Source of the DNA: Candidatus Omnitrophota bacterium | GTDB lineage: Bacteria; Omnitrophota; Gorgyraeia; Gygaellales; Profunditerraquicolaceae | Length of the DNA stretch: 52,888 nucleotides | Direction of reading: 5' to 3' | Assembly (NCBI GenBank): GCA_049517335.1 | Contig: JBEKSD010000009.1 | Coordinates: 1-52,888, forward strand | Shown: piece after piece, positions 4,101 to 35,117 of the stretch | Layout: the number at the start of each line of letters is the position of its first letter | Numbering within the stretch: the stretch's first letter is position 1 | Made by a program: the position numbers and the translations under genes | The notes under the pieces: generated by a model | Told to the model about the DNA's origin: nothing | The model's input: the letters and a program-made list of their open reading frames with translations, nothing else | Databases searched by the model: none

Positions 4101-4823
4101 ATGGCTAAGCAAAAGAAAGAACATTATGAGATTTACGTAAAGCAGATTGAGGCGCTTTCAAAAGTAGCTAACTTGATCACATCAGGAATGTATTTAGAGG
4201 AACTTTTACGCCTCATCGTGCACGTGACTGCGGAAATAATGAATTCCAAGATTTCTTCGCTTATGCTGCTTGACCCAAACACAAAGGAACTGGTAGTGCG
4301 CGCCACCCAGTCCATATCCGAAGCGTATAATAAAAAGCCGAACATAAAATTGGGGGATGGTATTGCCGGGATCGTGGCGAAAGAAAACAAGCCCATTTAT
4401 GTTCTGAATGTTAAAGATGATGTGCGCTATCTTAATCAGGATATTGCCCGAAAAGAAGGGCTTTGCTCGCTGGCAAGCGTTCCTTTAACAGTAAAGGGCA
4501 GAATGATTGGCGTTCTTAACTGTTACACCTCCAAGAAACACAAGTTTTCCAAACATGAACAAGACCTCCTGACTACTCTGGCAAATCAGGCAGCTATTGC
4601 CATTGAGAATGCAGAGCTGGATTTAAGGGCGCGCAGCGCTGAAGAAGCCCTAACTACCCGTAAACTTGTGGAGCGCGCCAAAGAGATGCTTGCGCAGGAA
4701 GCAAATATCCTTCCGCAGGAAGCTTACCGCCTTATTCAGAAGCAGAGTATGGACTCAAGAAAATCCATGCGCGAGATTGCCGAAGCAATCATTCTTGCAC
4801 AGCAAGTTAAAGGCAAAACTTAA
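4101..4823 (+). CDS. GAF-ANTAR RNA-binding transcription antiterminator
   Basis: GAF domain (LGDGIAGIVA...SLASVPL...IGVLNCY...LANQAAIAIENA) followed by an ANTAR domain (RKLVERAKEML...EAYRLIQKQSMDSRKSMREIAEAII). Confidence 0.92.
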   Translation: MAKQKKEHYEIYVKQIEALSKVANLITSGMYLEELLRLIVHVTAEIMNSKISSLMLLDPNTKELVVRATQSISEAYNKKPNIKLGDGIAGIVAKENKPIYVLNVKDDVRYLNQDIARKEGLCSLASVPLTVKGRMIGVLNCYTSKKHKFSKHEQDLLTTLANQAAIAIENAELDLRARSAEEALTTRKLVERAKEMLAQEANILPQEAYRLIQKQSMDSRKSMREIAEAIILAQQVKGKT

Positions 4824-4827
4824 AGGC

Positions 4828-4852
4828 AAGACCAGGGTGGGACCTTGGTTTT
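4828..4852 (+). terminator. Probable intrinsic terminator after the GAF-ANTAR gene
   Basis: AAGACCAGGGT-GGG-ACCTTGGTTTT hairpin 4 nt after the stop codon. Confidence 0.55.
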
Positions 4853-32100: not shown

Positions 32101-33656
32101 TTTCTCCTCCTCCACACCATGATATTTATTCTATTGAGGACTTAGCCCAACTCATTTTCGACTTAAAAAATGCCAACCCCCGCGCACGCATCAGCGTAAA
32201 GCTTGTTTCCGAAGTAGGCGTTGGTACTATTGCCGCCGGTGTTGCCAAAGGGCATGCCGATATGATTCTTATATCCGGAGGAGACGGCGGGACGGGCGCC
32301 TCCCCGATAAGCTCGATTAAACACGCTGGGCTTCCCTGGGAGCTGGGTATTTCTGAAACGCACCAGACACTGGTGTTGAATGACTTGCGTAGTCGTGTTC
32401 GGCTGCAGACCGATGGGCAAATGCGTACCGGCCGGGATGTGGCAATTGCCGCTATTTTAGGAGCTGAAGAATACGGTTTTTGTACCGCGGCGTTAATTAT
32501 TTCAGGATGCGTGATGCTTCGGCACTGCCATTTAAATACCTGTTCTGTTGGAGTTGCCACGCAGGATGAAACTCTGGAGAAGAGGTTTAGCGGTAAGCCA
32601 GAATTTATTGTTAGTTATTTCCATTTCGTTGCCAAAGAGTTACGCGAGATTATGAGCAGTTTGGGGATAAGAAAACTCGATGATATGATAGGCTCTACCG
32701 AGCTCTTGGAAGTTAACCCCGATATTATCCCTGAGAAGGCAAAAGGCATTGATTATTCTAAGATCCTTTATAAACCGGAAGTTCCTAAAAATGTAGGCAC
32801 GCATTGCCTCATTGCCCAGGATCACGGGATTGATAAAATTATAGATTTGGAATTAATTAAGTTAGCGCAAAATACACTGACAAAAAGAGAGCCGGTTAAG
32901 ATTGAAATGCCAATTAAAAATAACAATAGGACCACAGGTGCAATGCTTAGCGGTGAAATTTGCAGGTGTTTTGGGGAAGAGGGATTGGATGATGACACGG
33001 TGCATTGTAAATTTAACGGGGTAGCCGGACAGAGTTTCGGCGCATTTTTAGCCAAGGGTATCACTTTTGAGCTTGAAGGGATGAGCAATGATTATATTGG
33101 TAAGGGGATATCCGGAGGAAGGATTATTGTTTATCCCGATAAAACGGCTGCTTTTAAGGCAAATGAGAATATTATTATAGGTAATACTACTTTTTACGGC
33201 GCCATCTCTGGGGAGGCATTTATTAGGGGAGTTGCAGGAGAAAGATTTTGCATCCGTAATTCCGGATTATTCGCAGTCGTGGAAGGGGTTGGGGATCATG
33301 CCTGTGAGTATATGACCGGAGGCAGGGTTATAGTTTTAGGTAAAACCGGAAGGAATTTTGCCGCAGGTATGTCCGGAGGTATTGCTTATGTCTGGGATAG
33401 AGACGGTGATTTTAAAGATAAGTGCAATTTAAGTATGGTTCAGCTTGAAAAAGTGTATGCTGATGATGAGATGGTGCTTAGTGATTTGATTCGTAGGCAC
33501 CATTTATATACTAAAAGTAATATTGCCAAGAAGGTCTTGGATAATTTCCATATGGAGCTAAAGAAATTCGTTAAAGTGATGCCGCTGGAATATAAGCGTA
33601 TTCTGGAGCAGAAGACATTTGAAAAAAGGCTGGATTTAACGGAGGTTTCTGACTAG
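29115..33656 (+). CDS. gltB: Glutamate synthase large subunit
   Basis: [54 protein letters not shown], 3Fe-4[13 protein letters not shown], and GXGXG repeats. Confidence 0.98.
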
Positions 33657-35117
33657 GTGGCAACCGACATAAAAGGTTTTTTGAAGATTAAAAAGCAGAC
33701 ATGGGGCTACAGGCCGGTTTGCGAAAGGGTGAAAGATTATTCGCAAGTCTTCATAATCAGGCCTGAAAAAGATTCTAAGGAGCAGGGTTTGCGCTGTATG
33801 GATTGCGGCACGCCTTTTTGCCATTGGGGTTGCCCCGTGGGTAATTATATTCCTGAATGGAATGAATTTATGTCTGCCGGGCATTGGCAGAAGGCTTTCC
33901 AACTTTTGGATGATACGAATAATCTGCCGGAGATAACCGGTAGAATTTGTCCTGCGTCTTGCGAGTATGCTTGTGTTTTAGGTATTAATGATGACCCGGT
34001 TACGGTAAGAGAAAATGAATTGGGTGTCATCGAATACGCATTTTCCAATAATTTGATCAAAGCAAAGCCGCCTAAAAAGCGTACCGGTAAAAAAGTCGCG
34101 ATAGTAGGTTCTGGTCCTTCCGGTCTTTCCTGCGCAGCCCAGTTAAATAAAGCAGGACATAAGGTCACGGTGTTTGAAAAAGATGATGCCATAGGCGGGA
34201 TATTAAGGTACGGGATACCGGATTTTAAGTTGGAGAAATGGGTTTTAGACAGGCGGATTAAGATATGGAAGGAAGAGGGGATAGAATTCAGGGCCTCGGT
34301 TAATGTCGGCAAAGACTACTTTGCTTCAAAGTTATTAAAGGATTTTGACGCCGTATGCCTTTGCGGAGGCTCACGCTTCCCCCGCGACCTGAAGATCGAA
34401 GGAAGGGAATTAGGCGGAATTCATTTTGCCATGGATTACCTTACTCAATCCAATAAGAGGGTGGCAAAAGTAAAATTTGCCCAAAACGAATTAATTGACG
34501 CCAAAGGAAAGAAAGTTTTGATCGTAGGTGGTGGAGATACCGGTGCTGACTGCGTGGGGACCGCGCATAGGCAGGGTGCCTTCTGCGTTATGCAGATAGA
34601 AGTTCTGCCTCAGCCTTCTGCTTGTAGGACCAAAGATATGGCCTGGCCCAAATACCCACTTTTACTTAAAACTTCTTCAAGCCATGAGGAAGGCGGGGAG
34701 CGTAAGTGGGCGGTATTAACTAAGGAATTTATCGGTGAAAAAGGCAAGGTAAAGAAAGTTTCCTGTGCCCAGGTTGATTTTAGCGAAAAAGACCCTAAGG
34801 GATGCCCGATTATGAAAGAGGTCCCGGGAAGCGAATTCGTTATTGAAGCGGACCTTGTGATTTTGGCTATAGGATTCTTGCATCCGGAGCACAATAATTT
34901 ATTATCTGACTTAAAAGTTGAATTTGATAACCGTGGAAACGTTTTGACCGATATGAATTACATGACTTCGGTTAAGAACGTATTTTCCGCAGGTGATATG
35001 CATAGAGGTCAATCGCTAGTTGTTTGGGCGATTTCAGAAGGAAGGCGCGCGGCCCATTGTATTGACAAGCATCTTAATAAAGAGTCAAACTTACCTTTAT
35101 TACCCGCCGTTCGCTAG
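33657..35117 (+). CDS. gltD: Glutamate synthase small subunit
   Basis: RCMDCGTPFC...CP, GRICPASCE..C, GSGPSG, GGGDTGADC, AGDMHRGQSLVVWAISEGR. The GTG start abuts the gltB stop. Confidence 0.97.
   Translation: MATDIKGFLKIKKQTWGYRPVCERVKDYSQVFIIRPEKDSKEQGLRCMDCGTPFCHWGCPVGNYIPEWNEFMSAGHWQKAFQLLDDTNNLPEITGRICPASCEYACVLGINDDPVTVRENELGVIEYAFSNNLIKAKPPKKRTGKKVAIVGSGPSGLSCAAQLNKAGHKVTVFEKDDAIGGILRYGIPDFKLEKWVLDRRIKIWKEEGIEFRASVNVGKDYFASKLLKDFDAVCLCGGSRFPRDLKIEGRELGGIHFAMDYLTQSNKRVAKVKFAQNELIDAKGKKVLIVGGGDTGADCVGTAHRQGAFCVMQIEVLPQPSACRTKDMAWPKYPLLLKTSSSHEEGGERKWAVLTKEFIGEKGKVKKVSCAQVDFSEKDPKGCPIMKEVPGSEFVIEADLVILAIGFLHPEHNNLLSDLKVEFDNRGNVLTDMNYMTSVKNVFSAGDMHRGQSLVVWAISEGRRAAHCIDKHLNKESNLPLLPAVR

Follow-up and report, generated by a model that had tools for sequence, protein, structure and literature searches.

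The 52.9-kb contig JBEKSD010000009.1 of a Candidatus Omnitrophota bacterium (positions 1 to 52,888), which in its entirety forms the window analyzed here, probably encodes a two-layer nitrogen-assimilation regulon of the Omnitrophota, in which transcriptional read-through would be controlled by an ANTAR antiterminator and initiation by a dedicated sigma factor. According to Pfam the window contains one GAF-ANTAR protein, one sigma-70-family protein of 174 amino acids (aa) and four nitrogen units, and all four units sit behind the bipartite motif GTTACCA-N15-TACTTGTA. An earlier note on this DNA had proposed that each unit carries the same box pair and, in addition, a leader with hexaloop hairpins and a terminator, and both were recovered at all four units by pattern search and folding. 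The gene identities, the anatomy and conservation of the leader RNAs, and the co-distribution of sigma factor, boxes and leaders were established by computation in the source genome, which comprises 1.45 Mb and is 92% complete, and in its relatives. Nitrogen control is a textbook case of diverse regulatory solutions, such as NtrBC/sigma-54, GlnR/TnrA, NtcA, AmtR and NrpR, and the Omnitrophota are a widespread uncultivated phylum with very small cells.

The sigma factor and its gene

At the Pfam cutoff the 174-aa protein matches GerE only. It passes the NCBIfam model TIGR02937 "sigma70-ECF" across residues 3-170 (53.6 bits, cutoff 42.9), which bears out the earlier designation of the gene as encoding a sigma factor of the extracytoplasmic function (ECF) kind. 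A profile of 16 orthologs matches FliA at 5.8e-9 with separate region-2 and region-4 stretches. Sigma70_r2 and Sigma70_r4 are found at E<=1 in all 16 members (best E 1.6e-6 and 3.1e-7), with the protein of the window itself under the Pfam cutoff, and region 3 is found in only one of the 16. The AlphaFold model of the protein has a mean confidence (pLDDT) of 77. Foldseek finds no match to this model at E<=0.001, and among the matches listed the top 38 comprise nothing but sigma factors and the sigma-like PhyR domain, with weak E values of ~2e-3 and above. By its profile matches, the protein is a sigma-70-family factor.

The sigma family occurs at 187 places in species-representative genomes, and the locus counts given here refer to the best 80 of these 187, almost all of which are labelled Omnitrophota. 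The boxes begin within 170 nucleotides (nt) after the sigma gene in 69 of the 80 loci; in the window, the distance from the sigma stop codon to box pair 1 is 41 nt. A single locus (1/80, L134) has the boxes on the upstream side. Such boxes are missing ahead of the sigma gene in the window, where a sigma-70-type promoter is found instead, and this mark of autoregulation is thus lacking. The neighbors of the sigma gene encode a VTT/DedA membrane protein and a permease-PII fusion, neither of which is a known anti-sigma factor, and no search was aimed at anti-sigma factors. ECF groups without an anti-sigma factor exist.

The region in front of the sigma gene contains attenuators. The claim that the gene lies behind a sigma-70 promoter and two hexaloop/terminator attenuators was upheld, with 11 of 12 consensus matches for the promoter and fold z-scores of -3.2 and -5.5 for the attenuators, whose hairpins GAC-GAAGAU-GUC and GAC-UAAGGC-GUC each overlap a terminator. 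The terminator scan placed a terminator at 15334-15375 before this gene. When the 400 nt before the sigma gene were inspected in the 78 loci with enough sequence, a sigma-70-type promoter was present in 55; 53 loci had one or more hexaloop attenuators, and 37 had two or more.

The box pair

The boxes GTTACCA and TTTTACTTGTA are identical at all four window sites, with differing spacers. The window has 11 copies of ACTTGTA alone, where 4.8 would be expected, and the full pair GTTACC-N18-CTTGTA, searched for on both strands as GTTACC-N16-20-CTTGTA, has only five copies in the 1.45-Mb genome (window positions 16013, 22679, 24561 and 28584, and contig C1:7705). The reversed pattern, used as a control, gave no match in this genome, and 9 matches across 41 related genomes compared with 65 for the real pattern. 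The geometry is promoter-like, as the two boxes have a fixed hexamer spacing of 17 nt, a T-rich stretch precedes the second box and the leader hairpins follow 10-30 nt downstream. A consensus scan reported no acceptable sigma-70 hexamers at the four window sites. A sigma-54 promoter was rejected, since the boxes lack the GG-N10-GC geometry and the genome search found no sigma-54 DNA-binding domain; operators of the NtcA, TnrA or NrpR type seem not to fit either, as the boxes are not palindromic over their length.

The earlier note had regarded the system as dedicated to nitrogen, a view that is supported by the relatives and loosened by the fifth site. In loci taken from 24 relatives, the gene within 1.8 kb downstream of each of 49 box sites was assigned by a reference set, and 45 of these sites precede nitrogen genes (Amt 16, PII 3, permease-PII 1, glutamine synthetase (GS) III 13, GS I 7, Fis-GltB 5). 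One site lies before KdpA and three lack a match to the reference set. The fifth pair of the present genome, at C1:7705, precedes kdpFABC, and in the relative G020 boxes are likewise found before kdpA, which suggests a nitrogen-potassium link. Between the fifth pair and kdpFABC (C1:7705-7954) there is also a second promoter, a sigma-70-type extended -10.

Does the sigma factor read the boxes?

Of 25 genomes that have the sigma factor, 19 carry exact boxes, as do 3 of the 16 that lack it. The three sigma-less genomes that have them are 64-75% complete, and the six sigma-bearing genomes that lack them belong to other families, three of them carrying a variant box. The other two alternative sigma factors of the present genome served as controls and did not track the boxes: an ECF sigma from contig C21 (boxes in 11 of 14 genomes with it and in 11 of 27 without it) and a 271-aa sigma that is present in 40 of the 41 genomes.

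A second line is the co-variation between protein and promoter in 24 loci around one distant relative. Sigma factors with the sequence ILQGC in the most conserved block of region 2 go with TACTTGTA in all 11 loci that have the motif, whereas in seven of seven cases in which R or K replaces Q the box reads TACTT(A/T)NN, with A/T for G. GTTACCA and the SHV helix of region 4 stay constant across these loci. A third line is a joint loss in the relative G024, which is 94% complete. It keeps nadE-amt-glnK and has no boxes, no leader of the kind described below and no ANTAR domain; between nadE and amt a sigma remnant is left, an 18-residue in-frame scrap with the DSYILQGCYFH block and a stop codon (L064, G024:C14, ~4257-4310). 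Taken together, the co-distribution, the co-variation of region 2 with the -10-like box and the joint loss indirectly suggest that the 174-aa sigma factor reads the box pair.

The leader RNAs

The leaders of the four nitrogen units fit the textbook definition of ANTAR targets, to judge from their sequences: dual hexaloop hairpins (P1 and P2) with A or G at loop position 1 and G at position 4, the second of which is overlapped by a terminator. The earlier note had taken them for ANTAR targets, and the loop positions and the P2-terminator overlap agree with this. Unit 1 has two attenuators. In the first, P1 is ACAC-AUUGCU-GUGU, P2 a weak AC-AAUGGC-GU and the terminator GGCGUUCC...GGAACGC-U run, and in the second GAC-GCAGAC-GUC and CCC-AUUGAU-GGG lie inside the terminator (fold z -4.1 and -3.8). 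Leader 2 is composed of P1 ACAC-GUUGUC-GUGU, a P2 region GCAGGC-GU and a long terminator (z -4.1), and leader 3 of an atypical P1 with an 8-nt loop, P2 GAAC-AGGGGC-GUUC and a terminator (z -3.7). Leader 4, with P1 AUAC-AGCGUU-GUAU and P2 GAAC-AAAGGC-GUUC, folds at -34.4 kcal/mol (z -6.7), and the 5' arm of its terminator begins at the first loop base of P2. GGCGUYC is common to P2 and terminator in all four leaders. As the GGCGUUC of P2 (GAAC-NNNGGC-GUUC) starts the 5' arm of the terminator, P2 and terminator are mutually exclusive. The minimum-energy fold is the terminator in all eight window leaders, with z between -3.2 and -6.7 in seven of them, so that the default state would be OFF. Folding was used here in place of a simple terminator scan (loop limit 8 nt), which caught one leader terminator only.

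The loop statistics come from 53 leaders, in which P1 and P2 were sought by their stems alone. P1 (RCAC-N6-GTGY) turns up in 36 of these, with G at loop position 4 in 36/36 and A, G and T at position 1 in 26, 9 and 1, respectively; P2 (AC-N6-GTY) is present in 46, with G at position 4 in 45/46 and A, G and T at position 1 in 32, 12 and 2. Both hairpins occur together in 38 of the 53 leaders, after three doubtful picks were dropped. An alignment of 38 sequences is referred to as A2, and a covariance model of P1-P2 as R1. In A2 the pairs of P1 are 100% standard, three of its four pairs change on both sides, and its covariation score is 0.252 as compared to 0.169 in shuffles (0.252 being reached by none of 500) and at most 0.136 with the partner slid. 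In 70 R1 matches from other species, pairing holds in 87.5% of the cells, and two-sided changes are seen in 35 cells. The inner two pairs of P2 are solid and the outer two often unpaired, particularly in the leaders behind the sigma gene, giving 85.9% paired cells in A2 and 76.6% in the other-species matches. At least one of the 70 R1 matches is held by 65 of the 80 sigma loci.

Searched through the 1.45-Mb genome, R1 returns only the four nitrogen leaders at E<=0.03. The scores are 33.5 bits for unit 1, 36.4 for leader 2 and 47.4 for leader 4, and leader 3 was picked up although it lies outside the training set (21.5 bits, E 0.024). A naive scan for any two hexaloop hairpins with a T-run had no discrimination (207 genome matches, 62-70 in shuffles) and was replaced by R1. 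Rfam has no family at gathering score in the window and none at E<=1 in the 14-kb nitrogen block, so that no Rfam family can be assigned to the leaders.

A second type of attenuator, GAC-NNNGNN-GUC overlapping a terminator, has eight regular-expression matches in the genome. Four of them are intergenic and all on this contig: a pair precedes the sigma gene, another forms the second attenuator of unit 1 and the fourth precedes an Mrp/Mbh-type hydrogenase cluster. This fourth one contains the hairpin GAC-AUAGAA-GUC (match at 4908) behind a TTGACA that was read by eye, and its terminator fold is weak (-16.3 kcal/mol, z -1.8). It may be an extra ANTAR target outside nitrogen metabolism.

In leaders of the relatives (L009, L012, L024 and others), short palindromic inserts GGCACACC...GGGTGT(T/G) are found, at times in tandem, which look like repetitive extragenic palindromes.

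The GAF-ANTAR protein

The GAF-ANTAR gene had been predicted at 4101-4823, and Pfam confirms both domains. GAF_2 (83 bits, residues 32-169) is an N-terminal signal-receiving domain that is joined to ANTAR (residues 180-231), which scores 62.5 bits at a cutoff of 27.3 and reaches 65.4 bits when the whole genome is searched. A search with PF03861 finds this one ANTAR-domain protein in the genome. Across the genera of the family the protein shares 76-85% identity, and the order Lrp-aminotransferase-GAF-ANTAR is kept in 8 of 13 loci of relatives; in the window the stop codon of the aminotransferase gene abuts the start codon of the GAF-ANTAR gene. In two relatives (L015 and L017, of G015 and G010) the aminotransferase and GAF-ANTAR genes are separated by an inserted GS-like gene with ~40% identity to GS I.

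The best NCBIfam matches of the GAF domain are the N-terminal GAF domains of PtsP (EI-Ntr, 1.1e-14) and NifA (2.7e-13). The NifA GAF domain binds 2-oxoglutarate. That of EI-Ntr binds glutamine (PMC4848567). By this likeness, the GAF domain probably senses the nitrogen status in the form of glutamine and/or 2-oxoglutarate.

R1 leaders are present in 28 of the 41 related genomes, 25 of which also have the GAF-ANTAR gene, and in five relatives (G003, G010, G012, G028 and G035) a leader directly adjoins a GAF-ANTAR paralog gene. The relatives G021 and G028, both without the sigma factor, have their nitrogen genes behind a sigma-70-type promoter and second-type hexaloop attenuators. Our reading of this distribution is that the ANTAR layer is older and wider than the sigma layer. 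In the co-occurrence scan of relatives that the earlier note had called for, the boxes track the sigma factor (19/25 versus 3/16), and the GAF-ANTAR protein extends beyond sigma factor and boxes.

The proposed cascade and alternative readings

Which protein binds which element, and the feed-forward behavior as such, we infer from the arrangement of the sequences; a look through public RNA data for window 15200-25190 brought up no matching run. A sigma-70-type promoter would give a short, terminated transcript before the sigma gene. Active GAF-ANTAR would hold the hexaloop hairpins, upon which the terminators of the sigma leader would fail and the sigma factor would be made. The sigma factor would then initiate at the box pairs of the four nitrogen units and of kdp, and read-through into the nitrogen units would again need GAF-ANTAR, which would clamp P1 and P2, with P2 taking the bases of the terminator 5' arm. 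As the antiterminator would release sigma synthesis and then be needed at each target, the circuit would be a coherent feed-forward loop with AND logic, and such an AND-gate cascade is plausible from the sequences. The ON state would be nitrogen limitation, to judge from the content of the regulon and the likeness of the GAF domain only. The AND gate is not universal. In some relatives the sigma gene comes straight after nadE, and relatives that lack the sigma factor use a sigma-70-type promoter with attenuators for the same genes.

Several observations weigh against this cascade. In sequence, the sigma-gene attenuators are unlike the target leaders, and they give no R1 match; 25 of the 78 loci have no attenuator before the sigma gene, which in these loci often directly follows nadE. 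The box pair before kdpFABC is followed by a c-di-AMP riboswitch (RF00379, 70.4 bits) and has no hexaloop leader, so that the boxes are neither strictly nitrogen-only nor always paired with an attenuator. The boxes GTTACC/CTTGTA are without the AAC/CGT pattern of classical ECF promoters. One relative, G037, has an R-type sigma factor and yet one exact TACTTGTA site. Leaders without any ANTAR domain are found in G022, G032 and G038 (86, 75 and 90% complete), and conversely 9 of the 13 relatives without an R1 leader have GAF-ANTAR (G007, G008, G021, G025, G028, G030, G033, G034 and G040), so that this protein is broader than the sigma/box system. Finally, related genomes are not independent, and the co-occurrence counts therefore overstate the support and are suggestive rather than statistical proof.

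Part of this would also fit a view in which the ANTAR attenuators are the whole nitrogen switch and the boxes are the promoter of a sigma factor that is not nitrogen-regulated, for instance a constitutive one or one that answers to general stress or ion balance. The feed-forward AND gate would then not exist, and the sigma attenuators would be incidental or serve another signal. The boxes before kdp with its c-di-AMP riboswitch in this genome and before kdpA in G020, the 25 of 78 sigma loci without an attenuator, and the sigma-less G021 and G028, which express the same genes from sigma-70-type promoters with attenuators alone, can be cited in its favor. However, nitrogen-assimilation genes lie behind 45 of the 49 box sites of the relatives, 69 of 80 loci keep the sigma gene in physical linkage with the first nitrogen unit, hexaloop attenuators precede it in 53 of 78, and G024 has jointly lost sigma factor, boxes, leaders and ANTAR. 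We think that this alternative is unlikely.

It has also to be considered that the box pair could be the site of a DNA-binding regulator over a weak housekeeping promoter, for which the orphan Fis-type helix-turn-helix (HTH) protein, a 59-aa HTH protein or the Lrp/AsnC-type regulator are candidates, and that the 174-aa protein has other targets. TACTTGTA as read from the sequence does hold TAC-N2-GTA, a small inverted repeat, the units encode several small HTH proteins, and the Pfam sigma domains of the window protein are below thresholds. Against this stand the promoter geometry with its fixed 17-nt hexamer spacing, T-rich stretch and hairpins 10-30 nt downstream, the failure of the consensus scan to find acceptable sigma-70 hexamers at the four sites, and the fact that the Fis-type HTH gene is downstream of only one site class. 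As the boxes moreover track the 174-aa sigma factor and co-vary with its region 2, this explanation is improbable. In a third reading, the leaders would act as ligand-sensing riboswitches or simple constitutive attenuators, and the targets of GAF-ANTAR would lie elsewhere. The three leader-bearing genomes without an ANTAR domain and the nine GAF-ANTAR genomes without R1 leaders could be adduced for it. It is also improbable, as what is conserved in the leaders amounts to two 4-bp hairpins with A/G1-G4 hexaloops, without anything aptamer-like, Rfam has no match even at E<=1, the three exceptions are 75-90% complete assemblies, and leaders adjoin GAF-ANTAR paralog genes in five relatives.

The cascade of GAF-ANTAR and sigma factor can be extended to the more general and tentative proposal that the Omnitrophota replaced sigma-54/NtrC by a small lineage-specific "nitrogen sigma", which would be ANTAR-gated through a one-component GAF sensor of glutamine/2-oxoglutarate that is reused at every target, placing an RNA-binding antiterminator over a sigma factor in a single-sensor coherent feed-forward loop, and which would also fire kdp and thereby couple nitrogen and potassium homeostasis as PTS-Ntr does in Proteobacteria. 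We regard this extension as quite possible, though it may well not hold in full.

Relation to known systems

Three publications describe the closest systems, and in their light the earlier statement that the architecture is unlike anything known was too strong: ANTAR control in nitrogen metabolism was predicted in 2012 (PMC3369931), and GnfM/GnfR (PMC2995071) and NtrC/NasR (PMC12591593) are related cases. Ramesh et al. predicted ANTAR control of the leaders of PII, ammonium transporter and glutamate/glutamine synthase genes across phyla, at a time at which no GAF-ANTAR protein had been characterized (PMC3369931). As in EutV/eut of Enterococcus faecalis, NasR/nasF and AmiR/amiE, the Omnitrophota system has two hexaloop hairpins, a P2 that excludes the terminator, an ANTAR protein from the same genome and nitrogen targets (PMC3369931). 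Unlike in EutV, NasR and AmiR, the sensor is a single GAF domain and not a REC, NIT or AmiC-linked one. The described target signature is A at loop position 1 and G at position 4 (PMC3369931), whereas position 1 is G in roughly a quarter of the Omnitrophota loops. Further differences from described ANTAR targets are that some Omnitrophota attenuators hold both hairpins inside the terminator and that the targets carry a special promoter.

In Geobacter sulfurreducens, GnfL/GnfM act on GnfK/GnfR, so that nitrogen genes need an initiation activator and an ANTAR antiterminator, one of which controls the other (Ueki and Lovley 2010, PMC2995071). The coherent feed-forward AND logic proposed here is shared with GnfM/GnfR. 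In Geobacter, however, a sigma-54 enhancer-binding protein acts as the master regulator and turns on the ANTAR system, whereas in the Omnitrophota the order appears to be reversed, with ANTAR gating the initiation factor. This factor is a sigma subunit instead of an activator, and the Geobacter ANTAR protein is a response regulator with a kinase, unlike GAF-ANTAR. In Klebsiella oxytoca, nasF is transcribed from an NtrC/sigma-54 promoter under nitrogen limitation and then subject to NasR antitermination in the leader (PMC12591593). The two-level control by an alternative-sigma promoter and ANTAR antitermination is common to both. Klebsiella uses sigma-54 with NtrC, whereas the Omnitrophota genome encodes a small sigma-70-family factor and, as searched, no sigma-54 DNA-binding domain. 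NasR adds nitrate as a second signal, whereas a single sensor appears to feed both levels in the Omnitrophota.

The sigma factor resembles group 4 (ECF-type) sigma factors in having regions 2 and 4 only, in its length of ~170 aa, in passing TIGR02937, and in its small regulon with a conserved bipartite promoter. It differs from them in that no neighboring anti-sigma was recognized (no aimed search), the control seeming to be exerted by transcription attenuation, and in that its target promoter lies downstream of the sigma gene, with no obvious autoregulation. Its Pfam domains are sub-threshold, unlike those of typical group 4 members, and its nearest solved relatives by profile are FliA, SigB and SigH.

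No published account was found of this sigma family, its promoter, an ANTAR-gated sigma gene or nitrogen regulation in Omnitrophota, with subscription journals and supplements outside the search; Table S2 of PMC3369931 could list related cases. Each device is of a known kind; it is their wiring that appears to be new, with the sigma factor as the newer half. If the proposal is true, the Omnitrophota gain a defined regulon that consists of a promoter consensus, an RNA element and two regulators, a GAF-ANTAR protein receives its first proposed target set, and an example is at hand in which sigma synthesis is controlled by antitermination and not by an anti-sigma factor. As the parts are small and self-contained (174-aa sigma factor, 240-aa regulator, 30-bp promoter, 60-100-nt leader), the model is testable in E. 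coli, and the same parts might find use as orthogonal components for expression. With the exact boxes, nitrogen-regulated genes would become predictable in Omnitrophota metagenome bins.

Features of the window and neighboring genes

Nearly all long open reading frames (ORFs) of the window are on the + strand. The features discussed above are collected in the table.

Table. Regulatory elements and genes of the GAF-ANTAR, sigma factor and nitrogen region, in window coordinates
Feature	Position	Strand	Basis
Lrp/AsnC-type regulator, opens the Lrp-aminotransferase-GAF-ANTAR block	2429..2917	+	Pfam AsnC_trans_reg 1.3e-17
Class I/II aminotransferase	2945..4099	+	Pfam Aminotran_1_2 3.6e-72
GAF-ANTAR protein, 240 aa, proposed antiterminator	4101..4823	+	Pfam GAF_2 83 bits, ANTAR 62.5 bits
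Sigma-70-type promoter and hexaloop hairpin/terminator before the Mrp/Mbh-type hydrogenase cluster	4855..4946	+	Regular expression, fold
Mrp/Mbh-type membrane hydrogenase cluster, right after the GAF-ANTAR gene	4951-15228		
Sigma-gene promoter, sigma-70-type, TTGACA-N16-TATATT with TG	15214..15241	+	11/12 consensus matches
Two attenuators before the sigma gene	15248..15385	+	Regular expression and folding
174-aa sigma-70-family factor, regions 2 and 4 only	15448..15972	+	TIGR02937, profile search
Box pair 1, GTTACCA-N15-TACTTGTA	16013..16042	+	Pattern search
Unit 1 leader, two attenuators	16060..16205	+	R1, folding, regular expression
Unit 1: amino-acid permease-PII fusion, BBP2 porin, PII, 59-aa HTH, Amt, GlnK	16230..21841	+	Pfam
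Box pair 2	22679..22708	+	Pattern search
Leader 2	22724..22815	+	R1, folding
Unit 2: Amt, GlnK	22883..24484	+	Pfam
Box pair 3	24561..24590	+	Pattern search
Leader 3	24609..24692	+	R1, folding
Unit 3: glutamine synthetase type I	24712..26211	+	Pfam Gln-synt_C 1.7e-135
Box pair 4	28584..28613	+	Pattern search
Leader 4	28626..28716	+	R1, folding
Unit 4: orphan Fis-type HTH (126 aa), GltB, GltD	28750..35117	+	Pfam; NCBIfam Fis and NtrC C-terminus

The start of unit 1 was taken as the ATG at 16230 behind GGAGG, as the TTG at 16161 given by the ORF lister overlaps the attenuator. Its first gene (16230-18098) encodes an unusual transporter-sensor fusion, a permease with a C-terminal PII domain (residues 536-639). 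The 59-aa HTH ORF sits between the PII gene and amt. The GS III gene (26365-28560), which follows GS I, is absent from the earlier gene list and is without boxes or leader, whereas GS III of the relatives usually has both (13 sites). Upstream of the GS III gene of the window, the stretch 26211-28560 showed no more than a hairpin behind GS I and a potential extended -10.

The stretch between units 1 and 2 (21966-22620) holds an AbrB/MazE-like antitoxin gene (22052-22345) and, overlapping it, a 92-aa ORF without family match (22342-22620). The two share their own sigma-70-type promoter, TTGACA-N17-TACACT, and are probably a toxin-antitoxin pair. At 36000-48000 the G+C content falls to 0.31-0.34 over a block of the polysaccharide-synthesis type, whose first gene encodes a Bac_transf sugar transferase (35960-37366), and this block may be acquired DNA.

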